A stretch of DNA of 64,000 bases from Bilabrum cf. latius (GCA_965178125.1 OZ237756.1:124001-188000); one strand, 5' to 3'; positions 10,671 through 35,921 are shown, numbered from the stretch's first letter. The notes: generated from the sequence alone by a model not told the origin. Translations and numbers: made by a program.

Positions 10671-13600
10671 TCACGCTTCATCCCTCCAGTCAACCGTCCG
10701 ACCGAGCCACCTCTGGCTGTTCCATCCCTGGCTCGAGCTCGAGCTGCTCACCCCAAGCCTCCGCCTGCCACCACCACCACCACCACCACCACCACCACCA
10801 CCACCAGTCCTCGCGGCACCCGCCACGGCCACAGCGTTCGCCGCCTCCTCCCGCATCGCCCCCGCAGCTTCCTCGCACAGCCTCAGCGCCGCCTCGGCAG
10901 CGGGCGCGGCCGCCTCCCCGCGGGCCAGCGCCGCCACTCTCAGGTGTCTCCTGAGCTTGCGGGCGGGCAGCAGAGAGGCCAACGCAGCCACCTCGACCCT
11001 CAGCCAGTGGTACCCAGCGGCGAACCCCGACAGGCCCACGACCAGCAGCAGCAGCAGAGCGAGCACGTCCACGCGGTAGTAAATCAGATACGCAGCAAGC
11101 AGGGCGGCGAACAGCGCGAGACACGCGAACACCCCGGCCAGCATCACCTCCCTCAGCATCAGCGGAACCGCGCACCCCCGGGTGGGGGCAAGACCCCCCC
11201 TTGCCGCCTTGACCGCAACACTGGCCAGATCCGCCCTGTCCCCCGCCGTCCTGTCTTGTTCCCTGGCCCTGGTCTTCTACAGCTCAGAGAGGGAGCCGCG
11301 CCCCATGGCTGACCGCTGCATGCTTGCCGCGATGCCTTCTTCTTCCTATTCCTTCTCCCCCTCATGCTCCCCCTTCGTTCGCCCACCTGCACCCATGTGC
11401 CTTGCCCACCGCCCGGACGATGCACCGCCACCACTCGTCACACCACCACCATTCTTCGACCCCCTGGGTGCCACTGCCACGAGGGCGGGGTGCAGCGGCC
11501 GCAGCGCGTCCACGGCGCGGGCCGCGGGCTCCCAGGAGTGAAGGTCCTTCTCGCGGCCGGACAGCTCCGCAGGTAACTGCCGCCCCGCCCCGCCCGCGCA
11601 GCAGCCGCAGCACCCAAGCGACGCAGGACCGGCGCAGCAGTCGACTCTAGCTGCCGCCAGCTCGCGCACCGCCACTGCCGCGTCCTTGCCCCTGGGCAAT
11701 GTGACGTTGCTGGGCGTGCAGGGGGACAGACACGAGGCCACGTCTTCCATCACCGTGTGGTGAACCCCTTGCTCTTGCTCTTGCTCTTCCTCCCCGTCAT
11801 CCTCCTCCTTTCCATACCCACCATCGGCCTCGCGCTCACCGCCCGCCTTGGACCACCGGATGACCCCGCACAGCACCAGCGCGTCCAGCGCCAGCCACAC
11901 GCAGCGCGCCTCGCAGTCGGGGCGGGGCGCGTGCTACTCGTCCTCACGCGCCACTTTGGCCACGTGGGCAGCGGCGGCGTGCTGCGCGGCCAGCGCGGTC
12001 CTGTGTGCCAGCCTCTCGTCGCCCAGCACGGCACCCCGCTCCATCGCCTCCGGGTCATTCTACTGGCCCTGACCCTGACCCTGGCCGTGCGCCTGCCCGC
12101 CGGCCGTGCCCCCAGTGGAGCGGCTCCCGCTCCCGTACGTGCCCGGCACCGGCTTACCCCCCGCCGTGGGCCGGCCCACGATCACCTATCCGTTGGGACC
12201 CATCACGCCCACGCCGTGGCTCTGACCCGCCGCCAGACTCGTGCGGCCCTCGCCGTCCGTTCCCACGCCTACGTCCAGGGGCGCGGGCGGCGGCTCCATC
12301 ATGTGCCGGTGTGACGAGTGCATGATGCTCTCGGTCCAAGCCCACGCCCCCGGGGGCCTGAGCTGCTCCCTCTGCCAGGCCCTCCAGTGTGACGAGCGGT
12401 GCACCCCATGCGGCCCCTCGCCTTCATCCAACCACCCAAGCGAGTAGCAAGCGGCTGCACAGGGGCAGCAGAACACCTGCCACGCGACACGAACGAGACC
12501 CACGAGCGCTCCCGCAGACCACACGCAGCACGCGCACTGCGGTCCGGAAAACACACCAGACGCCCCGCCTGACTCGTCGTCCTCGTCCTTCACCTTGCCT
12601 TCTCCATCCAAACCCCTGAGGCGAAGCGCCGCACCCGTCCCGAATCGATCCGCGGGTGCTGCCAGTCGGGGCGGAGGCACAGCCACCCTGATCCCGCCCG
12701 CGAACCGAAGAGACGCTGGGACCTCGTGGTGGTGCCTGGCCTTGTTCTTCGCGCCATCGTCCTGCCGGCTGCCTGCACCCCTTCCTCCTCCTCCTCCTCC
12801 TGACCCCGCCCCGCTGGCCTCGTGCACCAGCCTCGCCGCCGCCCTAGCCTGCGCCCCCATGGCCCTACTCGCAGCAGCGTCCTCCCTGCCAAGCAGCACC
12901 TGCTGCAGGCAACGGGGGGAGAAGTGGTCCAGGGTCCATCCGTACGATGCAGCGAACCGCAAGGCAGGGGGCACCAGCAGAGCCTTGCTGGCGATGGGGT
13001 CCCACTCGAGGCCCAGCACGCCGTCGTCCAGGTCTCCATCCTGCAGGAGGCCCGCAGGAGGCCGCATGTCCAGGGGGTATGGACCGGCCGTGAGACCCAC
13101 GCCGCGGACCACGGGGGCACCTGGCGTTCTGCTGGGGCGTTTCTTGCCCTTTGCGTGCTTGTGCGACCCACCGCTGCTGCCAGGGTGCCGCTCGTCCGTC
13201 GCACCCGATTCCTGTGCCTCTGCCTCGCCGCCTGCCAGCCCGCACGACATCACCCACAGCAAGCAGCCGCACAGCCCACCGGCACCGCAGCAACCATCCC
13301 CCCCCTGCTCCGCGCCCGCGACTGACCCTCCCCTCGCACCTACCTGCCGCCTCGCCCCGTGGCTGCCCCCGCTCTCGATGTCGCAGAGCTGAGCGAACCC
13401 AACCGCGTCTGACATGGGGAGCGCATCCGTGCCCACGGGCTCGAGACCTTCACCCCCTCCCGCCCCGGCCAGCGCGCCCATGATCTCGTCAGTGTCGGTG
13501 CCGCCGCTGACGCCGAACACGGCCGCGTGAGTCTCCCGTGTGAAAGGGAAAATCCAGGCCACACCCACGGCGGCGATCAGCACCAGGCCGGGGAAGAGCA

Positions 13601-16600
13601 TGGTGAAGAAGGCCAGCAGCCCCACCACGTCCTGGGGCTGCCTGCCCTCGCCGGGGGTGTACCCCGCCGCTGCCAGCATGGCCAGCACCACGGCAGTGGC
13701 CGGCACGTCGATCCAGTGCAGGGCTACGGCCAGGTAGGTCAGGTACTGCGCCTCTCGCCGGAGCCCCGTGAGCCGGGCATCGTAATCGATCGCGGTCTTC
13801 CGCATGGACTCGAAGAGGAACTCAACGCCACCCTCCGTGAGACCGGAGGCCGTGGTGACTAGTGCAAACCCGACGCCGTCCCCGGCCCCGAGCAGCAGAC
13901 CGCCGAAAATCACCGGGGGCACCCCGAGCAGCATGCCAAGCAGGTAGGCAGACTTCTGGTCGCACGCCCCGCGCCACCCGCAGCAGCACAGGCGTGCCAT
14001 CCACAGGGGGCGCGGCACGGCGTCACCGGCCGCGCCTTTGGGCCGTGCCCCCGCCCCCGCAGCCACCCACATCCACAAGGGGGTGGACAAAGCGGATGCC
14101 ACGAGCTCGAGGCTAAGCGCCAGCCCCAGCCAGAACTCGTAGTGCGGGAGCTGCAGCACGTACTGCGCGTAGAATGCCGTCAGGGAGTGCGAGACCACCC
14201 GGGCCAGCGACAGGAGCATCACCTGCGCCAGCAGCACGAGCAGCGCCAGGTTGACACCGGCCCAGTTGGCACCCGCACCCAGCGGCATGGGCTGCGGCTG
14301 AGGCTGGTCCCTGGGCCCGCCCTCGACCGTGGGCTGGCAGGCCTCATCCACGGGCATGGGCTGCAGCACCAGCCACGGAACAGCGGCGGGACGGGCCCTG
14401 GTGCTGCCCGCCCACCCTGCCCCGCCTGCTTCCTGCCCAGCGTGCTTCTGGCGGACATCAGCGAGCGCCGCGTGGGCAGAGTCGCCTGCATCGGCCGCCG
14501 GCAGGGCAGCGAAAAGCTGAAGGAACCTTCGGTCCGACCTCCACTCCACTCCATGGGTAGCAAATGCCTCCCGCTGCTGCCTGCTGGGGTGGATCTCCCC
14601 CGCGTCCCAGTCCGCGTGCGACCACAGTGCATCCACGGCGTGCGCGCCCTCCAGCCCAGCCTCACCATCATCATCATTATCGCCGCCGCCGTCGCCCCCG
14701 CCCTCCGCGCTCGTCACACCATCAGCGGTGGGGATGCTCTCCCACCCGTCCATCTCCAGCACCGCCTCGTGCTCGCCCACTGAACGGCTGCTACTGCCCG
14801 AAGACCTGCTGCGTGCCGCCGCTGGCAGCCGCCGCATGGTCCTGTCCAGCCTCTCGCCCCCGCCCTTTTCCATGGCGGTGGGCAGGAACTCCTTGCCTCC
14901 CAGGATCTCGTCGCTGACCGAGTCGCTCCTCGTCTCGCTTCTCGGAGACTTGCGCGGACTGCTCCCCAGAGTCTCGTCCCCCGCCGACGTGGTCTCCTGG
15001 GAGGCCTCCTGGATCGTCGGCATCCTCGAGCGGGCACCGCCACCGGGTGCGGCCGCCAGCGCTTGCGAGCCCGCCGCCACCTGCGCGGCTGCCCTGTCGA
15101 GCTCATCGTTTGCCGTGCTGTTCCCCACCCCCAGGGCTCCCGCGCTGGAGTGCAGCTCCGACGCGTCCTGCGCCGCCATCCCAGTGTCCTCCAGTGAGAC
15201 CATCTTGCGTGGACTCGACACGCCGGGCCGCAGCTTGAGCCGGCTCTGGAGCCCGCCGGTGCTCCCGCCACTTCCACTTCCACTGCTGCTGCTGCCATAT
15301 CCCTCACCCTCCGGCCGCAACGGCAGTGCCCCGCCCTTGGCCACATCGCCCGCACCCGTCCCCCTTTTGCCTGCCCCGCGCGCAGCATCGCCAGAGCTCC
15401 TTCCCACCAGCACCTTCACGCGGGTCAGCTGCCTCCCCAGTGACTCCGCCCATGGGAATGCACCGCGGGGGAGGTGACTCGCGGCCGCCGCCCGGAGCTC
15501 CTCAAGGGTGCTGAGCCCCTGCGACGCCAGTCCTGCAGCCTCCTTCGCTTCTGGCTCGGCCAGCCACTTGCGGGCAAGCAGCCTGGGCAGCCTGGCGCTA
15601 TCTGCGGTCAGCTCAGCTAGGCGCCCCAGCACTCGGACGGCATTCGCTTGGCTCCTCTCTGCCTGCGTCTTGGGGCGTTTGAGGGCACCGCGGGCGTGCT
15701 GCAAGGCAGTCTCTACCGTCAGTCGCCTCGGGATGAAGGTCGCGGCGAACCCGCCCAACAGCCAGTTCCGCTGCCTGAGGATAGACTCTGCCACGGACCT
15801 TGGAACCCGCTACTGGCTCACTACGAGCAACCCGGTGTGGGCAGGGATGACGACTGCTCCGCTCGGCACAGGATCCGATAGCCCGGGTCGTGATTTCTGC
15901 TGCCCACGGGCGCCACCAGGAGGGTGGCCGCCCCGTGCACCGCCCTCTCTCCCGCCATTGGACCCCTACTGGCCCACTTTCCCCTCCTCCTCCTCCTCGG
16001 CGTACAAGACGCGATGCAGGTCAGCAAACTCGCCATCCCCACCGTCTGCGCCGCCCAGTGCCTGCGTGCTGGCACGAGAGGAGCGCGATGATGGCGGTGA
16101 CGAAGACGACTGCAGGCCTCGGCCCGCGGCCTCCACCGCCGCCTGTTGCAGCCCCGCCAGCACAGGGAGGGCGATCGCCTGCCCGCTGGCCCACTAGGGG
16201 ACCGTCAACAACGCGTCATCGATGGCGGAATCATCTACGATGTCGTTCAACCCATCCTGGGCCGCGGTCAGGGACGGGGACAGGCGGCCCGCCTCGGATA
16301 GGATCGAGTGCGAAGATGACGTGAGGGGGAGCACTCTGTGGGAGGACGCGTGTGCCGAGCTGCTGCCACTCGAGCTGCCCCTCGAGTGAAGGGAAAGGAC
16401 GGGCCCCTGCGACTACAGAGAGGGGCCCAGGTTGGACCTGTTCGAGGGCAGCGACTGCAGCGAGCGGACTCCGGCCGGAGGAGCCTCCACGGTCTCGGTC
16501 GACTCGAAGACAACGCTGGCCTCCGGACCCGCGGCCGCCCCCGGACCGTACTCGCTTACAGGCGCGGCTGCTCCCCCGCCTCGCGCCTGGAACTGCACCG

Positions 16601-18416
16601 AGGCCCGCCAGCCCCTCCTCTGCACCGCCTGCTGCTGCCCTGGCGAGAATCCAGGGCCAGCATGCACGTGCTGCGGCTACGGCTGGGGGTGGGGGTAGGC
16701 TCGGGCCTGGGATCGGGCGAAAACGCCGTCTCCTGCACTCATCACACCTTGTCCAGCAGCGGACGCAGGTCGGCTCTCCCCACCGTCCTTGCTGCCCTTG
16801 CCGCCGACTGCACCCAGCCCCGTGCCGCTGTCTGCACCGCCGTCAGTGTCAGGCAGCACCCCGATGCGATCGTCACCCATCCGTCCATGATCAGCCTCTA
16901 GCTCGTGCTTAAGCTCGCCTCTCGCTTCTTTTTGGTTTAGGCCAAGTGTATCATCCGCGTCGAAGGAACCCCCTTGCGAGTCTCGGACCATGGAGCTGGC
17001 GAGTGCGCTCCCCGGCCTCGGTTGGCCAGGCACAGGCGACTCCTCCTCTACCTAACCGGGCATGGGGTGCTGCTGCATGTGGCCGGGTGCCGTTGGCGAC
17101 CCACTGGCATAGGTGCTGCTCCCCGTCACGCTGCTTCCCACCTGCCTCGACATGTCCTAGTAGTGCGAGAGGAGAGCCTGGAGGTCAGTCTCTGTGCCCT
17201 GCTCCGAGGCCATCGAACCCAAGTGCTGCCCCTGCCCCTGCCCCTGCTGCTGCTGTTTGACTGACCTACCTCTAGTCCTTGTGCCACCGCTGCCCTCCCC
17301 CCCGCTGTCGCTGCCACTATCATCGTCACTCCTGTCATCACCATCACTATCACCATCGCTGCTCCCACGCGTGCCACCCCCGCGCCCACCCCTGCCTCCA
17401 CGGCGGGACCCCCCAGTCCCCGGCCCAGACAGGCTCAGCTCCAGCTCCATGCCCACCCTAGACCACGCCGCAGCCCTGGCCTCCTCCCGTACCAGCAGCC
17501 GCACCATCTCGAGCGTGCTGGGCCAGGTGCGTCTCTGCAGGAAGGTGCAGCACGACCTCCCGCCCTTCGTGCTCCTGCCGCTGCAGCACATACCATACCC
17601 GTACCCAGACCTGCCTCCGGCACCCATCCGTCCTCCTCCTAGACCCGCGCCCACGATGAGCACAGGCTTCTCCCACAGCCCACCGTCCTGTCTCTGCGCC
17701 CTGCTGATACGCACCCTACGCGCGAAGGCGCTGTGCAGCATCGCAGAGGGCCGGGCCACGTCCAGCGGGGTTGGAACCCGGGTGTAGCAGGCCAGCAGGA
17801 GGATGGAACCCACCATGGAAACTTGTATGGCCACAACGAAGAGAGGGAACACCTGAGCGTGCGCCGCCCCGGTTCCTCCCACGATGGAGGCCAGGCCTGG
17901 CACCATCACCCCGAGCACCATGCCGACACAGGCAAACACGTGCTTCCAGCCGAACAGCTCGCCCGGCTTGTCGTAGCTGTCAGTCAGCTCCACACCCAAA
18001 GACATGTATGCCAGCGAAAGGGGCGTCATGTTGATGACACTAGCCGACATGGCGTACCAGAGGATGTTGGCGACCTCGCTCATCCCTTGGGGTATCGAGT
18101 ACATGCTGATGATGGCAAGCGCCATGATCGGGGCGCACAACACCAGAAATGGCCTACGCCTGCCATTGAGGCTGCCGCATTCGCAAAAGGTGTTGTCAAC
18201 GAGCCACCCAGCAATCGGGTACGAAAACAAGTCGATGATCCGAACCACTGCATTACAAAGCGCAAACGTCCTCGGGCTCATACCCACATCGTCAACATAG
18301 AACTTGGTCTAATATGTTACATGAAAAATACCTGCGCATGCCATACTGAACGCAGGGAGGGCGTATAACAGCATGCTGCCGATTGACAAAGGTTTGGGGC
18401 CTCGGTCCGAGCCCAT
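10671..18416 (-). CDS. Giant MFS transporter (GPH/MFS_2-like) with very long low-complexity insertions, 2581 aa
   Basis: ATG 18416 (MGSDRGPKPLSIGSMLLYALPAF...Y*TKFYVDDVG). ORFs 17157..18287, 16677..17033, 16413..16667, 15966..16163, 12186..15794, 11346..11900 and 10671..11159 are one frame separated only by TAG; stop is TGA 10671-10673. GPH motifs IAGWLVDNT..GRRRPF and IDYDARLTGLRREAQY. Confidence 0.8.
10768..10806 (+). repeat. (CCA)13 trinucleotide repeat (poly-Gly in the MFS tail)
   Basis: Directly visible. Confidence 0.9.
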
Positions 18417-18556
18417 GGCTGACAATTCCTGGCCTGTTGATGAGTACTGCTATATGCAACAGTCTGTCAGATTTGTAGAAGATATTGAGTTCCTCTATGC
18501 CCTGAAGGCAGAATTGTATCCGCGCTGGCTCGCTGCGCAAATCCGATTTACTATTT

Positions 18557-21500
18557 GCACGGTACTATAATAACCGGAAGCACCATCCACGGCTCGTCGT
18601 GCACCAACGGCCTATGTTGGCTGGACTCCATCCACACACTTGTGGGGGTCCAGTCAAGTCACGTCCCTGCCTTCGTCAGTTCAATCGTCCAATCATGCAA
18701 AGCACACATCGCCCATGAACGGACCACAACCACCGCGTCAAACGCAGCCACAGGAGGAGCAGCGGCAGAACACGCGGTAGCAGGGGCTGGAGACGCCGCT
18801 GAGTAGGAGACCGGTGATGGAGGCGAGGTACGCACTCCCACCACGGCAGAGCATCACGACACTCTCCCACTGTTGCGAGGCATCATGAGGGCACACCCGT
18901 ATGCACCCCAATGTCTGTCCTTGTACGCGGCCCGGCAGGGCTACCCACAAGACAAGATTAAGCAACTCGCGGACGCTGTTTCGACTCGAGAGCTGGACGA
19001 AGACAAGACCAAAGAGATCCTACAAAGCCTCGGCCCAACGGAAGACCGCGAAGAGAACTCATCGTTACAGCATCTGGAACGCGATCTTGTGGTGCTTACT
19101 CTAGCAATCATGGAGAGTGCCATTGGTAACTTCGTCAGGATCACGAAGATTGAGCCGGACTACGTCCCAGGCAAGTTCCTCTTCAGCAGTGAAGTTACTG
19201 CCTCACTCCCGGGCAACACACTCCAGTGGATGAAGGCACACTTCAACGCCAGCCTGTCTTTCATGGCCGGGACGACGACGACTGGATCGGAGGTAGCACC
19301 CCTGTGCATCCCATGGTGGCGCAGTTCGCACTACTGGCCACCAGCTGAGTGTGTGTTGGGACACGTAGCGGCAGTCCACGGAGTACACATCCCTATGTTG
19401 ACAGTGGGTACCGCCAAGGCAACACTATACCTCGCCCGACCATTAGTCACCCAGCGGTTACACACGCCCGCCAGGATGACGACAGCAGTAGCCATGCGTG
19501 CCCAGACTCTCGATGGGACTGATACCACTGGAGGTCACTACTTCCTCATGGGAATGCAGACAACATCAGTTTAGCCACGTAGAGGACCTCAGGCGCTGGT
19601 CAACGCTCGAACGATGCCCCGGATATTGCTGAGCAAACCCTCGGCCGCGTGCATTGCCCAAGACTCAACTGCTCTGGATTACGCAAGACACGGACTTGAG
19701 CTCGACCTCCCGCACGAACCAGTGGCCCTGACACGCGACGACGCACCGCCTGTCCCAGCGTCAAGTGCAGAACTTTGGGCACCAACTACAACGTGGCAGA
19801 AAAGGCTGCAACAGGCGGAAGACACCCTGGCGAGCCAGCACCCATCCGATGAGGACATGAAGTCTGCAGTGGAGACGATGGCCGAGCTCAACGGGGGCCC
19901 CATCCCGTCTGGAGAGGCCCTCCTGGATTGGTAGAGCTCCGGAGACCATGTCGTCGGATCGTACAGGCTCCCAGCTAAACAGTGTCATACGCTTGCCCTT
20001 CAGGTCGTCAGCGCTGTCCCCCTCTCAATGCAGTAGGCATGCCGCCTGTAGGACTCGGACAACTGCATCGTTTCGGCAAATAGGTGCACCACCATTGGGA
20101 GGATGCTGACAGCAGTGGCCCGCCTTGCCTCGGCGGATGGATACGACCACACGTGGTGCAGACCAATGGTGGCCAGCCCAGACATGGGCGTATCCAGCCT
20201 CCTACACAGCATGAGAAGGGCCATCGACGGTCCTGACCTGAAGCTTCCCTCTCGAGTCCTCCTGCTCAGCATCGACCACGCCGCTTCGATCATCACGATG
20301 AAGGCCTCGCCGACGGCCATGGCCAGCGAACAGAGGACTCCATACCTGTACGTCGACGGCGTAGCAAACGGTACCAGGGAGGACATCTCTGCGAATACAC
20401 TCCGACGTCTAACCCTGGGCTCCTACGCACCGGCGAAGTTCGACAAAGCTCCAGGCCCACGTCTTGGACACAAGTTCATCGCGGCAGTAGGATTCTGGGG
20501 CAGCCCTTCGAAGGCGCAACGTGCAGCCCTGGCCAAGTCGATCAACGCAGGATCATTCGACAAGATTGCCGGACGGGAACTACCAAGAGTGGCATACGAC
20601 ATGTTCCCCTCGGAGAGCCTGTTCAAGAGCCTTTGCGAGGGCAGCGAGTCCGAGCTCGTGGACTAGCACGACAGAGAACTATACAGACAATGTAGGAACG
20701 GCACACTGGAGGTGCCAGCTTTCTCCTCTGACCGCCGAGGTCGGCCGGAGACAGCGGCGATCGGCAACCGCGACTACCTGAACCGGTCCACAGTCGGATA
20801 CGCGGGGACAAGACGGACCATTACACCATCACGACGCATCAGGGAACACCGAGAGTACCGGCGACATGAGACAGAAGCCCGAGATGACCCAGCCTAGACA
20901 GTCCGTGCCATCTCACACAAGTAGATGACTCCTGAGAACGAAATGACTCTTGCCAAGCACTGGACCACTACCTGGGAAGCGGCACATCGCCCCCAAGAAT
21001 TCCGCTGCGGCCACCTGAATGTCAACAAGTCGAGGAAACTGAGTACCATCGAGCGTGCACTCCAACTAACGCAAGCCCCTGACTTGCTGTTCATGACGGA
21101 GTACGGCCGAAGCTCTGACTCGTCCATGGACCAGAAGCTACTGCCACTTGCAGTGCCAAACCTGACGTACAGAGGCGTGTGGCTAACACCCACGGAAGGA
21201 GGCACTCATGGGGTTGCGGCGGTCTGGAACACAAACCCACGACTAATGACCAAGTTCTGCCCCATTCAGCCAGCAGATATGCCCCAGGACATCCGGGACT
21301 GCCTCATCGTCAATGTGACAGTCGCAGGGAGCCGCACAGTTCACGCAGTTGGATGCTACAACCCCCTCGACGGCGAGCATCGCGGGGACTATAAGCGCCT
21401 ACTTAGGTGCATGCAAACAGGTTGGACCACAAGCAATGGGCAAAGGTTCGAGTTTGACCTGGATCAGACCGTCTTGATTGGCGACCTGAACACGCACCGA

Positions 21501-24500
21501 GAAGCGGACATCATGGAGGACGCCCCCACCAGGGAGGACGGTGAACCGTGTCTGAGCCTTCGGACCCCGTGGATGCCAACACATGGCGGAGGTAATTGCC
21601 TAGACGTGGGCCTCGCTGGGTCAGCGCTCTGGACAGGAGGTGCAGTCCTTCGAAATCCCGGATCTTAGGATCACTCACCCGTAGCCATGAGGGTAGAGAC
21701 TACCAGGTCACAAGTCTACAACGATCCAAGTGCTACCCTAGACACGGCGCCAGACAAGCTACGGAGACCACGTACCAAAGCCCAGGTCCGCCGATACCGC
21801 AGGAAGATGGCACAGTTGCTGGCCGAACAGCCATAGCTGATGGAGCTGAGCAAGCAGGCGAGCACAGCAGCCCTGACACTAGGTGAAGACTCGGGAGCGG
21901 GAGGAGATGAAAAGGCCAGCATCCTTGGCCAAGCCACGACAGTACTGGAACATCTGGTCTCCACGCTGGCAGACTGTGACTCCAAAGCCTGCGAGGCCGC
22001 GGTTGGACCAGCCCAGCGCCAACAAGCAGCCCCACGCAGCCGCCTCCAGCACCGTGCGAAGATCTCTCGCATGGTAAAAAGGGCCCAAAGAGCAAGACTC
22101 CAGCGACACAAGGACGCATCCCTTCTGACCGAGACTGTCTGCATCCGGGACACAGCTGCCTCCCTGCTGCGTAAGATCAAAAGCAAGCACGCAGACAGGC
22201 GCGAGACGTCAATACGGGAGATTGGGTCTGGCAAGTGCCCAGAGGCCAACGCCATGATCAAAAGGATCAGCAAACTGCGACGACGGGTACAGGCTAGGGT
22301 AGCGACCAATTGCGATTGGGGCAAGCATCTGCTCCCGACTGCACTGTCCTCCCTGGCCCCCGCAGACCTACAACCGAGCAACCTCGCGAACAAGATGGTG
22401 CTTCAACGAGTAGTTGCAGCTGCAGGAAGTGACACGATATCAGTGACACGTCTCACCAGAGATCGTATCCGCTGCGATGCCCACGCACTCCAACAAGCTC
22501 TGAAGGTCCTACCTGCCCGCGAGGCGTACCGCACGATATCGAGCCAACTCGGGGCCAGAAGATCAAAGCAACGAGCTATTGCAATGGTGGACCGCGAAGA
22601 CGGGACACGGACCTCCAATGCCTAGGAGGCAGTGGACGCCCACGCGGCATACTACTCCAGTAGCGCTACCAACGCAACGGCCAACACAGTGGACACGTCC
22701 ACTGATGAGGGTCTCTCAAGATTCATCGAGGTCCTGGGCCAACACATGCCAACATCCCCGAAAATCGGCATGCTGGTGACTGATGACGCTGCCGAGGAAC
22801 ACATCTCGACTGCAATCAAGTAGTTGAAGTCCGGAAAGGCTACGGGGCCGAGCGGGGTGCCAACACGCGCAATCAGACTCACATTCGATTTCGCCGACGG
22901 AGAACGCAAGTACCCTGACACACTCCTCAAGGCCCTTCAAGCTATCCACAATTGCGCAATGGTGTGCGGATAGTACCCGCTGACCCTCTTGCGCACTTTC
23001 ATTGCACCAGCCTTCAAAGGCAAGCCGGACGACCGTGACTTTCGATGCAGTGACTACAGATGCATCTAGTACGCAGACGTGATTGCAAAGGTATTGGGCA
23101 TCATCCTGCTGGGCAACTGCCAGGAAGTCATGGCTCAACGCCAAACGAAAGGAGCTTCGCAGTTCGGCTTCACGCTGCGCCGTGACCGAGTGATCGCAAT
23201 CCTGAAGATTCTGCAGCAGACCTTCACCGCGGGGAAGCAGGGCCTCGTGCTCCTGTTCGGAGACTTGAAAGCAGCATTCGACCGAGTCCAATGGCCTATC
23301 ATGCGGTACACGCTAGAGAAGGCTGGACTGAGCGCGACCGCTTCGAGTGCATTCGTCAATAGGATGAAAGCTAAAGCGGAGGTGTACCACCGCCCAAGCA
23401 ACACCCGATCGGAACCATTCGAGCGAGGAAAGGGGACATGCCAGGGAGATCCCATCTCCCCAGATGGCTTCGCGGTATCAATGGTACCTGCGAACGAGTA
23501 CGTCAGGCAGGCGTGCGCAGGACCGCAAGCGGCACCACTGACAGCCGATTGGGACATCGCACAGAAGGAGCCACAGACGCTGTACGCGGACGACACCTGC
23601 GTCACTATGTTGTGCAAGAGCGGCTCGCTGACGGCTGTAGCAGTGCTCTCCATTGGACACCATGAGTCTGGCCATGAGTTGGGCGTAAGAGCAGTCAGCA
23701 ATGGCTACACGAGCAAGACAGCTGTGATGGCGACCGGACTGACCCGTGAGGCGTTCGAAGCAACTGACGACGACGTGGAAAGCGGACGTGCAGTTGCATT
23801 CACCCCAGAGGAGCTCAATCTCAGGATCCAAGAGCAACTTCCTGGCACTCTAGCCACGGCACCACTGGAGCCAATCCGACTGGTCCACAAGTACGACTAC
23901 CTCGGCTTCCGTCTACACACCAGACGGGCACCGGTCAAAATGGCCGACGGAAGTACTAGACAGCTCCACGTCCTGGACCCAGTGAAACACTTGGAGAGGC
24001 AAGCCGGCAAGGCAAGACGAAGCATTGCGGACATCTGCCAAGCAGCCGTGAACTCTGACTGGAGCCTTGCACAGCTGTCCTCGATCCTGTACAGTGCAGT
24101 CTACGGGACGGTGCTGCAAGACCTCCACCTCTCAGCGGCACCAGCAGGCTTCGAGCAGGAGCTAAAACGCAAGACAGTGAAATGCACCTACGTACCAGGT
24201 ATAGTCTGGAACAAGGCAGCTTTGAACATTGTCGACGAGGTCCTAGACTGTGCCAGGGCCGCCCTGGTCGAAGCAGCCCCCCGACTTCCTAAGAAAGGAG
24301 GCGGCCGTTTCCTGCCGAAGGACACGGTCAGGGCGCTGGTCTGGCCGGCCGACGCGATGGCCAGAGCTGTCTCACAGGCGTACGGCTGCTCACTGGTGCT
24401 GCTGAGCGGAGACACGCCTGCCCACATGCAGCTAACCGCGTGGTACATGGTCAAGCACGAACCTAGTGCCCAGGGACCTATGGCGAACATGGCCGCAGTC

Positions 24501-25596
24501 TACAGGTGCCAACATGGCGCACGAGACCAGTCCGTCTTCCAGATGATCTTCAACACCAAGAACCGCAAGCAGCTGAAACGAACGTTCACCTCGTGGCTGT
24601 GCCCGTATATCCTACGGGACGCGACTGCACTGCTGAAGTCGAGCTCCAGCACGCACGCTGCCGGTATACTGCGCGAAGCAGAAACGATGCACCCGGTAGC
24701 GACAGACGCCTGGGCAAAGTTTGACGAGGACTCTGTAGGCATGAAATACCTACAGAGCTGCATCGGTTTGGACAATTCCCGGATCCTCGGCCCTTCGGCC
24801 ATGCCGGCGATAGCACGGAGCACCTGGCGAGGCCGAGACGGCCGCCTCATCCTACGATGGCTCACTGGGCGTTACCCTCGGGAAGGGACCATGCACCACA
24901 GAGGAGAACGCTCGGTACAGGCCGAGATGATGCGCGCGGAAGCCACGCACACGGACGTACCCTGGGCACCCACGGCAGTGGGGAGAGCACTATGGATGGA
25001 ACACGTCAAAACGGAGCAGGTGCTGACACAGGAACACCGAGGGGACGCAGACTCCTTGGAGCTCTCTATCGTCCAAGGCACCCTCGAACAACTCCAAGAA
25101 CGGTGCCGACGTGCAATCCGACGCTTGTAGCAGAGGGCCAATGAGAGCTTCGGACGAGCCATTGAGGGGTTGTAGTCCTGCCAACTGTGCGTAGCTGAAC
25201 AACTCAGCTCGGGCAGCCCAACAGCCCGAGACCTTGCAATCCGAGCCCACCCGCTCGGACACATACTGAATCCCTCCGAGAACTAGTTCATCGGAGAGTG
25301 GATGACAGGAACGCTGGGCCGTTGCGCCCTCAGCAAGGAGCTTCAGGTGCTAGAACGCATCTGGGCGAAGGGAACGGCAAGGCTAGCACGCTCCCGGATC
25401 TGGAGCAGGCAACAAGTCCTAGAGGCGGACTATATGGCGGTCTGGTGGCGAGAGGCTGAACGCCTCACGCCTCGCCAGGCCTTCCTCGCGCATGCTCCCT
25501 CACTGCGGACGTTCGACTGGGTCTGACTCCCAGGAGATCTCAACGCGATGCGCTTAGGACACGGGTCCTAGGCATGTATCGGTCTTAACCAGACCA
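18557..25596 (+). mobile_element. Non-LTR retrotransposon (APE endonuclease + reverse transcriptase); boundaries approximate
   Basis: Encodes APE and non-LTR RT domains and is visibly A/C-richer than host genes. ACTATTT at 18550-18556 and 25597-25603 is a candidate target-site duplication. Confidence 0.85.
18885..25526 (+). CDS. Single retrotransposon polyprotein (about 2213 aa): unknown N-terminal region, APE, RT, C-terminal Cys/His region
   Basis: One frame with 16 in-frame TAGs and no TAA/TGA until 25524. APE motifs HLNVN, LLFMTE, GCYNP, IGDLN and S*DHSP. RT motifs AIK*LKSGKATGPSG, SQFGF, GDLKAAFDRV, GTCQGDPISP, YADD and YLGF. CQLC...H near the C-terminus. First in-frame ATG is 18885, though the frame is open further upstream. 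Confidence 0.88.
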
Positions 25597-25777
25597 ACTA
25601 TTTCTTCAGAGGCCTTTTCAGGTCCTGACTGGCTCCGCCAACGCGGGTACAGCTGGGTCCCCTGTTAAGGTGCGCGTTACTTTGGTGGCAGTCCTCGGAT
25701 TGTCTCTGGTATTGAATTGCGTGCGAAAACTCTATTTTCTCTCTCTCTCTCTCGTCGCACTCGCACCGATCAACTAG

Positions 25778-26539
25778 AGGTTCAAGAAGGGAGCACGCGA
25801 GGGGGAACGCACCGGACCTGCGAAACCCGTGGGCTCGGACTACCAGGATGAGACTGCCTGGGTCAGGGGAGCATTCAGGAAGCACAGGGAGGTTCATTTG
25901 GAGGTGCCTCCGCACCGGAGGATGGCTGGTCGTATCCCCACGGGGGCGACGGGGAACCCAGTGAAGACGCTGAAAAATCCCAAAACGGTGATCTTTCGGG
26001 ATTTTGTGATCCAGCCTTCAGGCAGGATCGGAGATGGAGCCAGAGGGGTCCTCAAGCTGCTAGCACGCATCAGGCGTAAGCGGCTCGGGAAGAATGGGAG
26101 CAAGTCAGTGGATGCCCAGGTCAGGTTCTGGGCTCGGGATATCGCCAGGTTGGTCGCCATGCGGAACGCAGCTTTCACGAGCAAATTTAACCTTAACGCT
26201 TGTGAGCTGCTGAAGCAGAGGGAGGCAACCGGCGCACAGGGAGCGGCCGCAGCAGGAGCTGGTGGTCAGGTGGGAGAGCTGGCAGCGGGAGTTGCGCAGC
26301 TAGGAGTGGCACTACAGCAGGCTGGTGGAGCTGGTGGTGCGTAGGGTTTGGATGCAGCTGGAGCGCCAGCTGTGCCCGCAGTACCTGCTGCAGCTGCAGT
26401 AGGAGCTGAGGGTGCAGCACCGGACGAGGCGGCTGATCCGAACGCAATCGAACACGAAGGCATCGCGAACGCAGATGGACCGCAAGCAGCGCAACTCCCC
26501 CACGGAGGAGCGGCCCAGCTTGCGGAGCCCATGGCGTGA
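25778..26539 (+). CDS. Coding segment resembling the C-terminal half of a restriction-like endonuclease (RLE) of non-LTR elements, plus Ala/Gly-rich tail
   Basis: IFRDFVIQPSGRIGDGARGVLKLLAR...FWARDIARLVAMRNA resembles the RLE pattern F.P...E..G..G...L...RLS..LQRGNA. TAG 26342 reads through to TGA 26537-26539. Preceded by a pyrimidine tract and AG at 25776-25777. Confidence 0.5.
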
Positions 26540-26886
26540 GCTTGCTGATCCGTTCGACCTGCCCAGTGCGATTGCCTCTTGGGGTGGTCGTTGTAGTTGG
26601 GTAGTGTGTGCTTTGACTCAGACATATTATATTCTCTCTCTCGTCGAAAACAGAAAATCAGCTTTAGCAGGTTCGGTGAGGTGGATATGGTTTATTTGTT
26701 GGACTTGTACGATAAATTACACGCTAAAAATCCTGTATGCATCTCCAGTCCTAACATGCTCCTTTTCAGAGGCTGCATGCCCACTGCAAGAAACGTGTCT
26801 CAGATCCTAGATATATGCCGATTTGTGTCTCGTCTTCAGAACTGAGCGCAGCAACTCACTTTATTAAGCGGTTGAACGCGTAGAAC

Positions 26887-29085: not shown

Positions 29086-29421
29086 CGCTGGAGCAGACCG
29101 GCTGAACAGGTATTTGCATGCATGGGTTTTCGTTGAGCGTCATGTAGTTTCATTAGAAGGGCAGGCCTTGGTGACGTTTCTCTTCGGCGACGTCTGTATC
29201 AATCAATTGTGACGTGGGGTTTGCTATTGGTCGGCGTTCCGACATTTTCTGGAGGTGTCACGCTTCATTGCAGCGATTGCGATTTGTCTCGTAGACCACG
29301 CAACGATCAGCACCTTTTTGCTACAACTGTTCTATAATTGACCTGGTCGGAGAGGCGTGATATCGAGAACGTTGAAGTATCGACACTTTGCAAATAGAAA
29401 TCTATCACACCGCTGGATTTC

Positions 29422-32400
29422 ATGCTACTCAACCAACCAGCCAAGAAATAGGCTGAGCAGCGCCCCGCCCCGCCGCTGCAGGTGTTTGGTATCCACCCAA
29501 TGGTATGGGTGGCTGCAGTGCTTCTGATCGGCCTGGCAATTACAGCAATAGTCTCTGTAGTTGTCGAAGATGCAGCTCGAAACGCCAATCTAGATACTTT
29601 GCTCGAGCGTGCGCGAGTTCGCGTGAAAGGGTTGGCATATGAATTCTACGGACACATTGATGAGCTCGCAGCATTTCGGTCTGCACTAGAAGGTACCGCA
29701 GACAGCCACGAGTTCCTAGGTTCCAGGCCTTGGGCTCCAGAAGCAGTGGCGATGTCAATACGAGATCTAAACCCTGGCCGCATAACCGCCACAGCATTTC
29801 TAAAGGAAGTGGATCGGGTCCATATTGATGCTCTTGAGCTGCAGCTGGACCAAGCATTCCCCAACATGGTCCGCAAGCCGAATCCCTTCGAGCTCAATGT
29901 ATTTGCACCTGGCGGTGGCTTTGAGCTCTTGTCAGAAACGAACGAAACAAGGCTGCAAGACAGAAGAGTTGCAGCAATCGGGACAGCGGGCAGGTACAAT
30001 GCGTCCACAACGTTCTCAAAGGGAAGGGACCTCGCTTCCGATGACATGAGGTACGCCCTCATCGAGGCAGCCGCTCGGTATCGCACACAGGCCGTCTCTC
30101 CTCCCAACATCGTCACCACGCGGCTGGGAAGGCGCCGTGGGCTCGTGGTCATCGACCCCGTGTACTCCCACGACGGGCTCACGCGGTGGAGCGCCCTGAA
30201 GCTGCTCCCCCAGGACGTGGACGTGGCAAGCATCGCGGGGGAGGTGGCGCCTGGTGTGAATCGGATCACCAGCCCGCAGCATGTTGCGCAGCAGCACGCG
30301 CACAGCGCCAGCGACGCATGCGGGGCCATCTTCAGGTCCACCTGCCTGCCCTTCAACACGACTCGAAGCGGGGCTCTGGCTGCCTACAACCAGAGCCTCA
30401 TCGACGTCCGAGAGGGCAGAAGGGAACACCCCCTGGAGCCGTGCAGCAGCAGGTGCGCGGACGGGCATTTGCTGCGGGGTCACGTGGTGGGGGCGTTCTT
30501 CTTCGATGCGATCGCGAACCAGGCGCAGGTGCTGCGGGACGGGAAGTCGCCTCTGGCCATCTACAGCGAGGACGTGACGGATCTTGTACGGGCGGGGGAG
30601 GGGCAGGACGGCGGATACGCTGCAGCCGCCATCGAGGGGGGACTGGTTAGCGGTGACCCCGGGTCGCCCTACGAGCGGCTGCAGCTGGGTGCGGGGGCGC
30701 AGCCGCCTGCTCATAGCTTGCCGCCCGGGCTCGGCGAGTTCCAGTTCGGCCTAAAGGACGGCGAGGACGTTGGTCTGGCTGGGAGCGACGAGGCGCAGGA
30801 GGCGGTAGTGTCCTTCCTGCGAGAGAGGGCGAGAGAGGACAGCAGGCAGGTGCTTGGTTTCCTCCTCCCGGTGGGGAACAGGGTGTGGTCCATCCACGTG
30901 GCGGGTACGGACGAGTTCTTCGACAACTTGGGCAGGCGAGCCTTCGTGGCTCCTTTGCTGGCGGGCGTGCTGGTGTCTTTCCTGGTGTCTGCCATGCTGG
31001 GAGCCATGTACTTCTCTTTCAGACACCAGCAGATCCAGGACCACGAGGCGGCGAGAGTGCTGCGGCTGAAGGCCGAGCAGCATGCGCACGAACGGCTTGT
31101 GTCGTTCATCGTGCACGAGCAGCGCAATCCCCTGCACCTGTGCAGCGGCAGCCTGGGCATGCTGAAGGACGGCATGCAGAGCGCGGAGCAGGCGCTGGTG
31201 GGTGCCATGGGGGCGGTGCAGGCGATGGAGGAGAAGCAGGCCATGGCGGGGGCCAGGTGCGACCATGCAGTGGGCAAGTTGATCGAGGCCATGGGGGGGC
31301 TGCGAGAGGCAATGGCTGGGACAGGGGCAAGGGAAGCGGAGCAGACACAGCACAGTGCGCCAGTGGCTGCGGCTGGCCATCAATTGGATGCATCTGCACA
31401 GGTGATATCATCTTCCATTGCCTAGTAGGCACTGCGCGAGCTGGGAGGTGCTCGCCAGGCCTTGGTGGAAGCCATGGGTGGGGCAAGGAGCACTCGGGTG
31501 TGGCTCGGGCAGGCAGGGCTGGAGATAGAGGCCAGTAAGGGTGATGTAGGGACCGCAGACCAGGGCACAGAGACCCTGCATCGGCTGGTGAACGACATGC
31601 TGGACCTCAGCAGGCTGAGGCAGGGCAAGCTGCCCGTGACAGTGGCACCGGTCGACCCCCGTAGGTTGATCAAGGCAGCGGCCTCTAGCCACCAGACGTT
31701 TGCCCAGGTGCCTCTTCGGTTCCACATCTCCGCCGCGGTGCCCTCTGTGATCCTCGCTGACTCAGTTAGGATCACGCAGATCCTGGCCAAGTGAGTCCAT
31801 GTGACGCGGGCCAACTGCTGCACCCGCGGCATTGTATTGTGGAGACTGCTTCATCCGACTGCCGTCAATTTGTCTTCCTGCTTCACGTACTGCTCTTGCT
31901 TGCATTTCTGTGTTCACTCTACCACCGCAGCGGGCTGACGAACGCGGCCAAGTTCTGCACCAAGGGGTACATTTTGCTGGACCTGGACATCCGGCTCAGG
32001 GCGGTGCCCCGGGAGGTGCTCGAGGAGGAGGTGAGGTCGAGCCAGCTGGCTAGGAGGTACCTGGCACAGGGCGCAAGTAGCCCCAGGGTGTCAGGGACAG
32101 TGTCTGAAGAGGACCATGGCAGGTCGGGTGGTCAAAAGAGGGGCTGGAGGCAGCATGCCGTCGGGGACAGAGGGTCAGCCAATGATGCAGTACCGATAGC
32201 TTCCATGCTGCGGTGGGTGGCAGGCGAAGAGCAAGGCGCAGATGGGAGCGAGCACAGCGGTATGTCTGGTGCTCACGATGCCCCTGACGGCGGTGGAGTG
32301 ACCTGCGGATGTGAGGGCTAGTGCGGCAGTGGCCTGGGATCCAGGCGTTCCTCAGGCGGGGAAGGCGCGACAGGGCTGCAGGAGCTGATGCATGAGTAGT

Positions 32401-34301
32401 TGCAGTCGTGCGAAGATGCTTGCGGAGGCAAGGCAGGGGCAGGAGCTGCCATTTTGCGTGCATCTGACGTGAGAAGATGCAGGGCAGACCGTCCACTGGC
32501 GGCGCAGGTGATTCGGAACGTGAGGGCCGCATGTCGGTGGGGCGATGCCGAGGCACGCGTGGGGTCGGTGGGGCTGGTCATGGCCAGCGTGCCAAGTGTC
32601 ATGGATCGGGTGGTAGATCGGGGCTCGCTATTGGGCGGGCTGGCAGGTCAACGAGACACCACGCGAAGCACGAGCCGATCTAGGACATCCCAGGGCACGA
32701 AAGCGGCCGGCTCGAGTGACGGTATCGGCCATCTTGCGCGTGTAGAAATGGGCGGCGCGGGCGAAACGCATTTCCAACCCAAGCCATCTGCCAGCGCACT
32801 TGCAGACAGACTCGGACACCCGCTCACGTCTGCCTCGTATGAGCCAGACAACTTTGACTGGATGCCTGGTGACACAGACAGGCATGGCAGCGTGCCTGAT
32901 ACAAGCGCCCGTCAATCCCAGGCACGTGATGTGCTGCCGCGCCGGAGCAAGTAGCGATCAGCAGGGTCAGAGACCCACGATATGGGGGCAGGCGAATAGA
33001 GCCCCGGCTCCGACAGCGAGCTGGAGCTGGAGACCGACGAGCGTAAGCTGCTGACCGAGTGGGGCGGCGAGTCTGTGCACCTTGTGCCCATGCTGGTGTT
33101 CAGGGTGATCGACACAGGGAAGGGACTGGGGAAAGGCAGGGCTCGAGAGGGGAACAAGTCGTTGTTCAACGCGTACACGACGGGCGAGACGAAGCAGGAC
33201 CGCAGCGCGATCGTGTCGTCTGCCAGCAGCGAGCACTCTCACTCGGACGATTCCTCGAGCGCCTCGGGCAGAGAGTAGTCCAGGGACCGGTCCACATCCC
33301 GCAGCGTGTCTCAGTCTGTAGGCGACGTAGACGCGTCCACTGACTCGGACGATGCATCGAAAGATACCTACAGCCCCAAGGCGCCGGATGGGAGCGCCAG
33401 CTCGGTGGCCAAGCAGAAGGGCTCGGGGCTTGGGCTAGCCATGGCGCAGGAGCTGACCAAGCAGATGGGCGGGACCATCGAGTTGAGGACGGAGAAGAGG
33501 AGGAAGAGGACCGTGCTGGAGGTGGCGCTGCCGCTGCGGCCCCCGTGGCGCGTGATCCGCAGGATGGAGGCCGGGGCGGTGGCTCGCCTGCCCACCGAGC
33601 TGGACACTATGCGGCAGCACAGCTTGGCGGAAGAGGCGCGCGCGCTGCACCGGGCTCTGGACGTGCTTGCACAAGGAGACCAGCGTGATGCACTGAGTGC
33701 TTGCTCTGCGAAGGCAATCCACAGTCGCAATCCTGCGTCGAAGGCAGAGCCGTACCAAGGCGCTGTTGCTTCATAGGAATTGGGAGAAGGGCCGCGTGAG
33801 GTTTTTGCACAGGGAGCGCCTGCCGAGGGAGTTGACCAATCTAAGGGTAGCACCACCAGCACGTCACCGCATGATGCGGCGGCAGGCAAAGCAGTCATGT
33901 CCTAGTCTGTTGCAAGGGCAGGGTCATCGTCGTCGGAAGGGTACTGGAGGAAGCACGAGCACCCGGTGAAGCAATCACGGCCGTCTACAGGCTCGAATGG
34001 AGGTGGCAAGCAAGGAGGAGAGCATCCCAGCAGCTCCGGTGATGGTGCTTGGTCGCAGTCAGGGTCGGGGTAGGGAACGAGTCGTAGCAAGCAGAGCTCC
34101 GCGGATCGCGCTAGAGAGCCAGACGCAGAGGCTGAAGCTGGTGCGAGTGGTGACCGCACTCTGTCCAAGAGGAAGCAAGCGGTCCTTCGTGCGCTGCAGT
34201 GTCTCCTGCAGATGCGGCAGTCCATGCAGTCTGAGAATGGAAGTTTTGCCCCGGGCAATGGCAGTCTTGGGTCTGGGAGAGAGGCCTCTCCTGTGTCGGC
34301 G

Positions 34302-34335
<34 letters not shown>

Positions 34336-35921
34336 GTGCTGGTAGTGGTGGTCAGGTGAAGGACGCCCAGTTCATGGCGACCTGCCTGTCGGCGCTGCCC
34401 GATGCGTTGCGGGATGGATTGCTGGTGCACATGCGATCATGGTCTGGCAGGGCAGATGAGAAGAAAAGACATGGGCAGAAGCAGGTTTTCTCTGTTCCGA
34501 GCGCAGTGGCCCGATGGAGCGGGCGGGGGGGACAGCCACCAGATGCTCGTCGTCCTGAGGATTTGCCGCATCCTGCAGTCTCGGGCAGGGAGGCAGAAGC
34601 AGCTAGATCTACTGGCATGGCAGGGGCGACGGGTCTACTATCGCCGTCAGGACCGCCGCTATCTAGCGAACACCTTGATGCATCTAATGATATGCAGACA
34701 GGTGGTGCAGCTGGTCGGCCACCTCGCGGTGAGCACCGACACAGTCTGCAGAGCGCTCTGAGCCGAGCATACCAGGATGGCATGCAGGCCGATGGGACAA
34801 CACCTGCATCAAGGCACTCAGTGAGCGATTGGAACTCCGTGTTCGGAGCAGGCATCCTGACACCCATCGGTCTGGCTGAGAGATCCACCACGCAGGCAGG
34901 TGCTGAGATGCGGCGGCATGTGTCCTGGGCCACGAGCCAGGCGAGCTCCAGTCTTGCCGATGGAGAGAGCACTGGCACGGCAGTTGGCAGCAGCAGACAC
35001 ACGCACAGCTCATCTCCGTCCGCCACGCCTGGGCAAGCAGCACCTGCTGGACCCCTCTCTGGGCTGCATGTGCTGGTGGTGGACGACGAGCGGGCACTGC
35101 GCAGAATGGCCACCCGAATGCTGCAGCGGCTGGGGGCCACGTCAGAGGCGCTGGATGATGGAAAGCACGTGCTGCGGGTGCTGAGGAAGCGGGGGCAGGT
35201 TCCATTGAGGACAAGCGGGAAGGGGGCATAGAGCAGCACCACGGTCTTGTCGCGAGAGGGCTCGGATGCGGGATCGAGCCAGGCGTCTGCGGCGCCTGGC
35301 CCTCGGTTCGACTTGATCCTGATGGACATCGTGATGGTGCACTCCAGGGGCACGGACGTGTGCAAGCACCTTTTGGAGGCGGGCTGCGTGGTGCCGATCT
35401 TCGCCATGACGGCCAACCACGATGCTTGGAATCTGCCCGGGTACAGGGAGGCAGGGTTCTATGGGCTGCTGCCCAAGCCGTTCTCGCAGGGCCTTGTGAG
35501 GACGAAGCTTCTGGCCTTGCGTGAGAGCGGGGTGCTTGAGGCCGCCAGAGGAGAGGAAGAGGGGCGGCGGGGCGTGGGGCTGGATGAGCTGTGGGGGGCG
35601 AGGGACCCTCGGCTGTACCCGCGCAGAAGTAATGATGCTGCTGATGATGATGAAGCTGCGGGGGCATAGGGAGCTAGCGATGGGTTGGGCAAGCCTAATG
35701 GGGAGGACGAAGATGAGGCTGCAGTTTGGCCAGGCGCTGTCCAGGTGAAGGTGCAGGCTCAGACAGGTCCAGTGTCAGGTGCGGAGGGTGCGTCATCACT
35801 TGCACCTGCACCAGCGGCTGAGCAAGAGGGTGGGGCAAAGAGCAAGAAGGGACGAGGCAGGCGGGTGGTCCGAAAGAAGAAAAAGAAGGAGAAGGGTGCA
35901 GAGGGCGAGGGCGCAACCTGA
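29422..35921 (+). CDS. Membrane hybrid histidine kinase: TM-CHASE-TM, HisKA, HATPase, receiver
   Basis: CHASE-like GRDLASDDMR...GLVVIDPVY; H-box FIVHEQRNPL; N-box QILANGLTNAAKF spanning intron 31791-31930; G1 VIDTGKGL; G2 GSGLGLAM; receiver VLVVDD, DLILMDIVM, AMTAN and PKPF. Pieces are joined only by TAGs, including tandem TAG TAG at 31423-31428. Stop is TGA 35919-35921. Confidence 0.9.
34303..34333 (+). repeat. (GCT)n trinucleotide repeat (poly-Ala in the kinase linker)
   Basis: Directly visible. Confidence 0.85.

Follow-up and report, generated by a model that had tools for sequence, protein, structure and literature searches.

Long interspersed nuclear elements (LINEs) of the L1/Tx1, L2/CR1 and RTE groups have two open reading frames (ORFs) and combine a core of apurinic/apyrimidinic endonuclease (APE) and reverse transcriptase (RT) with 5′ truncation, a 3′ repeat tail and target-site duplications (TSDs) of variable length. 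Protease-fused LINE proteins have precedents in the accessible text of two sources. Dualen/RandI elements of green algae carry a single very long ORF with a Josephin-related protease before APE and RT (PMC9977147; 10.64898/2026.06.17.732966), and the ORF2p of Symbiodinium necroappetens has an OTU-type module upstream of a LINE RT polyprotein, together with a 2A-like peptide and a second RT (10.64898/2026.06.17.732966). For target choice, the accessible part of a third source describes the APE-type LINE TRE5-A of Dictyostelium, which integrates at a fixed distance from a bound factor and uses TFIIIB/C to land about 50 bp upstream of tRNA genes (PMC3159450). Here we describe a LINE family of Bilabrum cf. 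latius, family A, starting from one copy in a window of 64,000 nucleotides (the whole stretch analysed, GCA_965178125.1 OZ237756.1:124001-188000). The window is part of contig C22 of a 48.6-Mb assembly, in which copies were counted genome-wide.

We consider it likely that the window holds a truncated, recently inserted copy of a young APE-type LINE in a Cafeteria-related flagellate that reads UAG as glutamine (Gln), and that long copies of this LINE encode a polyprotein of about 2900 aa. Family A shares the core, the truncation, the tail and the variable TSDs with the two-ORF LINEs, but its RT is only 24–34% identical to generic database matches and sits on a separate long-stemmed branch, and there is no separate ORF1. 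It shares the single very long ORF with Dualen. In contrast to Dualen, it shows no restriction-like endonuclease (RLE) or RNase H signature, has two candidate protease modules and a hydrophobic N-terminus, and combines short TSDs with targeting by an upstream motif. Unlike the Symbiodinium protein, it has an OTU module assigned at motif level, followed by a papain module. Whereas TRE5-A uses tRNA genes, the landmark of family A is a 6-bp word in either orientation and at a looser distance, and no tRNA gene was found in the window.

A first-pass annotation, made from the window alone, had reported an intact retrotransposon ORF that looks dead under the standard code. When translated with UAG as Gln, positions 18885-25526 indeed form 2213 codons with 16 in-frame TAGs, no internal TAA or TGA and a TGA terminator. 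As also reported there, one TAG lies at 21666 (codon 928), immediately 5′ of the APE Asp-His, and another at 22821 (codon 1313), within the N-terminal region of the RT. Read with UAG as Gln, the remaining frames across this interval are broken up, and none of their pieces exceeds 578 aa. In Pfam, the ORF (P0001) matched RVT_1 with an E-value of 2e-9 and, weakly, Exo_endo_phos at aa 711-930 (E 0.006). The part before APE is therefore in the same frame, as the annotation stated, but is about 710 aa long and not about 680 aa. The APE positions Asn, Glu, Tyr, Gly-Asp-x-Asn, Asp and Asp-His are invariant in 5/5 aligned family rows. With the RT downstream of APE and the catalytic residues kept, the element is classed, from its sequence, as an APE-type non-LTR (long terminal repeat) retrotransposon. 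The C-terminal region of six aligned families has no conserved Cys/His knuckle and no acidic RLE or RNase H residues; no invariant Cys or acidic/Lys motif follows the thumb in these families, and no Pfam match to an RLE was found. The dependence of the ORF on the code is by itself ordinary in a host with UAG=Gln. The positions of all parts are given in Table 1.

Table 1. Features of the family-A insertion and its immediate surroundings, in window coordinates
Feature	Position	Strand	Remark
Genomic CCGGAA word	18574..18579	+	24 nt upstream of 5′ junction
7-bp TSD of family-A insertion, 5′ copy	18593..18599	+	
Family-A LINE copy	18598..25753	+	5′-truncated by 1892 nt relative to the C17 copy
Module 1, OTU-like, motif level only	18600..19550	+	Cys codon 18615-18617; His codon 19536-19538 (His-Tyr box)
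ORF of the first-pass annotation (P0001)	18885..25526	+	2213 aa; first ATG remaining in the truncated copy; 16 TAG=Gln; TGA stop
Module 2, papain-fold cysteine-protease domain (predicted)	19968..20519	+	Cys C367 (19983-19985); His H465 (20277-20279); P0001 numbering
APE endonuclease	21015..21674	+	Catalytic positions invariant in aligned rows
RT, non-LTR type	22758..23948	+	
Thumb and C-terminal region	23949..25526	+	
3′ untranslated region	25527..25753	+	Terminal (TC)n tail, ~25738-25753
Family-A TSD, 3′ copy	25751..25757	+	Overlaps left copy of the 14-bp TSD of element B (25744-25757)
Element B, 3′ fragment of an unrelated (TC)n-targeting LINE	25758..26632	+	Inserted into family-A tail; right TSD 26633-26646

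The claim that the copy is intact failed on comparison with a longer copy on contig C17 (G000:C17:919000-909954, 9047 bp). Both copies are 99.67% identical across 7155 nt, and the C17 copy continues in the same frame for 1892 nt further 5′, which gives 2955 codons stop to stop with 23 TAGs and a protein of about 2935 aa from the first ATG. The window copy, with its 5′ junction at 18598-18600, lacks this part (about 630 aa of the C17 copy). ATG 18885 corresponds to Met743 of the C17 frame and is therefore an internal Met. Consistently, the open frame of the window extends 5′ of ATG 18885 back to 18489, no in-frame Met occurs between the 5′ junction and 18885, and one conserved Cys codon, that of module 1, lies 5′ of this ATG. 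The limits of the C17 copy are fixed because its flanks, with a 4-bp TSD, rejoin into a repeat that is uninterrupted at C17:907175 and twice on C14; the window copy as a full-length element was thereby ruled out. The C17 copy has just 13 nt ahead of its first ATG, and its extra 1.9 kb found no other genomic matches besides low-complexity ones. A 74-bp repeat 5′ of the C17 copy, considered as a LINE 5′ signature or ribozyme, proved to be the target repeat into which the copy had inserted, and an Rfam search with three loci gave no match at E<=1.

Family-A copies have a common 3′ end with a (TC)n tail, variable 5′ ends and variable, mostly short TSDs (mostly 4–9 bp), and no LTRs were found on them. 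A 24-nt tag from the 3′ end occurs exactly 34 times in the genome. Identity is 99.4% or more in 20 of the 26 pieces of other copies that were aligned, and of these 20, one has gained a TGA and one a frameshift; the older copies on C27 and C32 have frameshifts and one TGA each. Comparison of the window and C17 copies showed 13 synonymous and 8 non-synonymous codon differences, one of them CAG/TAG, although just 25% of sites are synonymous. Family A is therefore young and was under purifying selection, and the window copy is a typical truncated product. The description of a potentially active, divergent element holds for the family, which was recently active and has a divergent RT. In the C17 codon matching window 22917-22919, three adjacent base changes make the site match a similar sequence that lies about 55 nt further downstream; template switch or conversion is a possible cause.

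The proposed reading of UAG as Gln was borne out in both host and element. Every internal stop in the 43 DEAD-domain matches of the genome is a TAG. When 29 of 30 helicase loci were aligned with TAG as X, 36/39 of the TAGs fell in well-filled columns, with Gln columns enriched 6.9-fold and Glu columns, the next, 1.5-fold; five TAGs were at the invariant Gln of the Q motif. A nuclear tRNA gene with anticodon CUA (G000:C23:907607-907679, L097; 69.8 bits), which has a D-arm like Gln/Glu tRNAs and an acceptor stem like tRNA-Tyr, is a candidate cognate tRNA. Between the related families D and D1, Gln codons stand opposite TAG in 19 of 31 TAG codon pairs. These sequences indicate that table 15 is used in the host nucleus. 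In eRF1 (G000:C35:455983-456282, L211), Val replaces Ser in the TASNIKS motif; of the two homologues displayed, one has Gln and one Leu opposite an in-frame TAG of this gene. The small contig C111 (38.4 kb) is tRNA-dense, has a tRNA with anticodon UCA and is probably a mitochondrial genome using UGA=Trp.

The host was placed next to Cafeteria in a tree of Pescadillo (58% identity; Shimodaira-Hasegawa-like approximate likelihood ratio test (SH-aLRT) 92; 41 rows, one gene). The same code with UAA and UGA as stops is described for Iotanema spirale, Protocruzia tuzeti and two phyllopharyngean ciliate lineages in the accessible text of PMC11687900, whereas the present host groups with Cafeteria, a stramenopile. 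No published report of UAG=Gln in bicosoecids or stramenopiles was found in the open-access literature searched, and the word "stramenopile" is absent from the main text of PMC11687900 and PMC5304391.

The first-pass annotation had further seen in the TAGs a special adaptation of the element, and the codon counts speak otherwise. The share of TAG among Gln codons is 14.5% in family A, 10–16% in sister families, 12.2% in the host ORFs of the window, 7.3% for DEAD cores and 2.8% for Prp8. The value for family A is what a resident sequence of that third-position GC content (GC3) would show. TAG use matches host genes and therefore no special code adaptation is seen; the TAGs of the element are ordinary Gln codons at a host-like frequency. 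A barrier to transfer into standard-code hosts would follow logically from the 23 in-frame TAGs of the long copy. All five metagenomic relatives contain in-frame TAG, which would fit confinement to UAG=Gln hosts without proving a barrier. Three of the nearest database matches terminate exactly where the query has Gln, and gene callers break these elements into fragments in this way.

Related families D, D1, E, F and G were found in the same genome. The longest family-D copies are single frames of about 2800 codons (about 2750 aa), and the metagenomic contig L207, 39% identical, has at least 2933 codons with 43 TAGs and no TAA or TGA. The first-pass statement that there is no separate ORF1 is confirmed, as a single frame without any stop before APE was found in the C17 copy, family D and L207; the ORF1-then-stop arrangement of two-ORF LINE clades is absent from all three. 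The ratio of non-synonymous to synonymous substitution rates (dN/dS) for D versus D1 is 0.08–0.49 across all nine regions, with 0.37 for the hydrophobic N-terminal part. Family D (G000:C22:766391-774799, L188; C10:563865-572249, L177; over a dozen more) is very young and has an 8-bp tandem tail; its longest copy starts with an A-run and has a signal-peptide-like segment, a Cys-rich stretch and several hydrophobic helices. In the metagenomic relatives L205-L208, TAG is more frequent (in L207, 27% of Gln codons at GC3 0.54), and L207 has a 4-bp tandem tail at its end. These sequences suggest that other hosts share the code. No relative was found among viral contigs. In a search of sequencing runs, no RNA run was listed, and six rows from three studies shared at least half of the query words.

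The RTs of these families appear to form their own long-stemmed clade. The RT tree comprises 87 rows, left from 155 after filtering for redundancy; a length cut-off removed the planned RLE outgroup. The 10 family rows were one side of a long branch (SH-aLRT 99) against 77 database RTs, whose clade labels are presumed ones; neither Pfam nor cluster membership assigned these RTs to a clade. The named database RT matches were animal LINE RTs.

The N-terminal part, which had been called unrecognised, contains at least one papain-fold protease module. In long copies, hydrophobic segments (Kyte-Doolittle peaks 1.65–1.76 in family A and up to 2.76 in family D) are followed by a Pro/Ala linker (42%), a basic region (19% Lys/Arg) and then module 1. 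The Cys box and the His-Tyr box of module 1 are common to A, L207, D and D1, and its dN/dS is 0.22 in family D. We take these boxes to resemble OTU motifs, and host OTU genes show similar motifs. An OTU-type assignment of module 1, made at motif level, is slightly favoured. Three near-identical, dispersed OTU-like genes (L201, L202 and L204; C22:738344, C22:843908 and C14:335723) possibly belong to another mobile element.

Module 2 is predicted from a moderate model to be a papain-fold cysteine-protease domain with Josephin/ZUFSP-type top matches. An alignment of 5 rows with 15–31% identity has 7 invariant columns, which include the Cys and the His, and the acidic third residue is absent in family D. 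In the model (predicted local distance difference test (pLDDT) 57, predicted template modelling score 0.57), the Cys is at a helix start and the His before a strand. A fold search gave BpJOS (Z 6.5, root-mean-square deviation 3.9, 129 aligned), a C39 peptidase (6.4), PaJOS (6.1) and the ataxin-3 Josephin (5.5), where BpJOS and PaJOS are Josephin clippases; about 40 of 50 rows were papain-type proteases as judged by their titles. ZUFSP was the best Foldseek match (E 5e-4), and a search of BFVD gave nothing at E<=0.001. No direct description of LINEs with transmembrane or OTU parts was found in the open-access literature searched.

The word CCGGAA was first spotted by eye in the insertion flanks and was then the top word in a de novo k-mer count. 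After tandem and short-flank insertions were removed, 22 independent junctions remained from 26 listed, and 13 of these 22 5′ junctions had CCGGAA within 60 nt upstream, at -23 to -45, in plus orientation at 7 and minus at 6. The word was found in 0/22 downstream windows, 1/110 further-upstream windows and 2.3% of 3924 background windows. In held-out family-A copies it was upstream in 6/10, at -27 to -44 (P 3e-8). In contrast, family D had CCGGAA at 0/17 sites (of 20 listed; Fisher P 8e-5 versus family A), and its k-mer count gave no comparable exact word, just A/T-rich 5- to 7-mers. These results indicate that family-A insertion is associated with CCGGAA, which is always on the 5′ side of the element. 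The loose offset and the strand freedom suggest a tether over a sequence preference of the endonuclease. A role of CCGGAA as a general host promoter word was not supported: around 78 host gene starts, taken as rough first-ATG calls, it occurred 10 times in the proximal 300 nt, 16 times further upstream and 26 times in 600 nt of coding sequence.

In the mechanism that we propose, copies would arise by target-primed reverse transcription, often primed via TC microhomology with the tail. The basic region may stand in for ORF1p as an RNA binder. The protease modules may release APE-RT from the hydrophobic N-terminus by cutting the polyprotein, may act as deubiquitinases, or both. A CCGGAA-bound protein, most likely a domain of the element, would hold the nicking machinery about 20–45 nt away. 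The most far-reaching version, in which family A belongs to an undescribed deep LINE clade with a membrane-anchored, self-cleaving polyprotein and its own CCGGAA reader, in a stramenopile with an independent UAG=Gln code, is tentative and rather unlikely to hold as a whole.

Other explanations were weighed against these readings. An intact, active element with ATG 18885 as its start and a special adaptation to UAG=Gln would account for the open frame without frameshift and for the complete APE and RT residues, and the promoter of the host gene lying head-to-head about 180 nt away might read the copy; the lost 1892 nt, the module-1 Cys left outside the ORF, the missing start codon between junction and 18885 and the host-like TAG share make it very improbable. 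A Dualen/RandI member that lost its RLE would likewise have one giant ORF in which a Josephin-like protease at the N-terminus precedes APE and RT, the arrangement given for Dualen in the accessible text of PMC9977147. It is improbable here: no knuckle, RLE or RNase H residues remain in six families, the TSDs of mostly 4–9 bp differ from the very long ones which that text gives for Dualen, and the best 150 RT matches included no conspicuous intact relative of Dualen size. The element is not filed as Dualen because its C-terminus shows no RLE/RNase H signature. It is quite possible, though we doubt it, that the protease-like modules are dead scaffolds or plain deubiquitinases and the protein works uncut. 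The nearest folds of module 2 are ubiquitin/ubiquitin-like proteases, family D has no acidic third residue, and the accessible text of 10.64898/2026.06.17.732966 reports fusions of deubiquitinases with LINE ORF2p without self-cleavage evidence; against this, lineages with 15–31% identity all keep the Cys and the His, and a hydrophobic N-terminus on a nuclear enzyme would call for release by cleavage.

For target choice, a host DNA-binding protein touched by an element protein, as TFIIIB/C for TRE5-A, would give just the loose distance (23–45 nt) and both word orientations that were observed, and the ORF showed no recognisable DNA-binding domain. This explanation has somewhat less than even chances in our estimate; against it, CCGGAA is unenriched before the 78 host gene starts and is never on the 3′ side of the element. 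The comparison favours a reader encoded by the element, because the sister family D ignores the word, with a host factor as a close rival.

A number of observations weigh against the proposed polyprotein and its targeting. The full-length 5′ end is defined by one copy, with its first ATG so near the start, the hydrophobic segments are weak in family A, and L207 has no obvious hydrophobic segment, by eye, in its 570 aa before module 1. Module 1 gave no match in Pfam, no relevant sequence match in PDB and, against OTU by hhalign, E-values of 0.007–0.01 at a probability <6%; its AlphaFold model failed (pLDDT 35), a scan with position-specific scoring matrices was significant for the His box of D and D1 only, and a homologue search returned a single fragment. 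For module 2, sequence profiles gave no match, the fold Z-scores are <8, and C39 peptidases are level with Josephins. The RT tree was built quickly and includes neither named clade references nor an RLE outgroup. The exact CCGGAA is missing at 13/32 insertions, and no DNA-binding domain was identified.

The surroundings of the copy contain other elements and host genes. Element B (also L094:6225-9740) targets (TC)n runs, in many cases family-A tails, with TSDs mostly of 12–25 bp, and piles up in tandem on these tails and on its own; its C-terminal motifs are presumably RLE/CRE-like. At C14:1065736-1072990, direct repeats about 7.1 kb apart have LTR-like or Ngaro-like termini, with no frame of at least 350 aa under code 15 between them. 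The repeat is also present at C17:907175 and 919074, and the C17 family-A copy sits inside one such repeat. Near one copy of the LTR-like repeat on C36, two ORFs (L085:1385-2530 and L085:3222-4562) are presumably tyrosine recombinase-like and DDE transposase-like. In the window, a host MFS transporter frame of 2660 codons (10671-18653, minus strand), split by about 1200 aa of low-complexity sequence, has its putative start about 180 nt from the LINE 5′ junction, head-to-head. A hybrid histidine kinase (29338-35921, plus strand; HisKA, HATPase and receiver) and a TmcB-like PAS protein (59156-63999, plus strand) each consist of two overlapping frames, probably joined by introns.

The interest of family A lies in its polyprotein architecture, its targeting by a motif at a distance and the apparently unreported code of its host. 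A reassignment of UAG only, in a Cafeteria relative, provides an independent case for asking why UAA and UAG are usually coupled. Because families A and D differ in their targets, target choice can be tested by swapping domains between them, and insertion at a distance from a motif could point to a new approach to site-directed retro-insertion. How single-ORF LINEs manage without ORF1p can be tested on the protease modules and the hydrophobic N-terminus. If the most far-reaching version given above is true, the ORF1/ORF2 layout would have been replaced, in bicosoecids with UAG=Gln, by a polyprotein with two different papain-type proteases.

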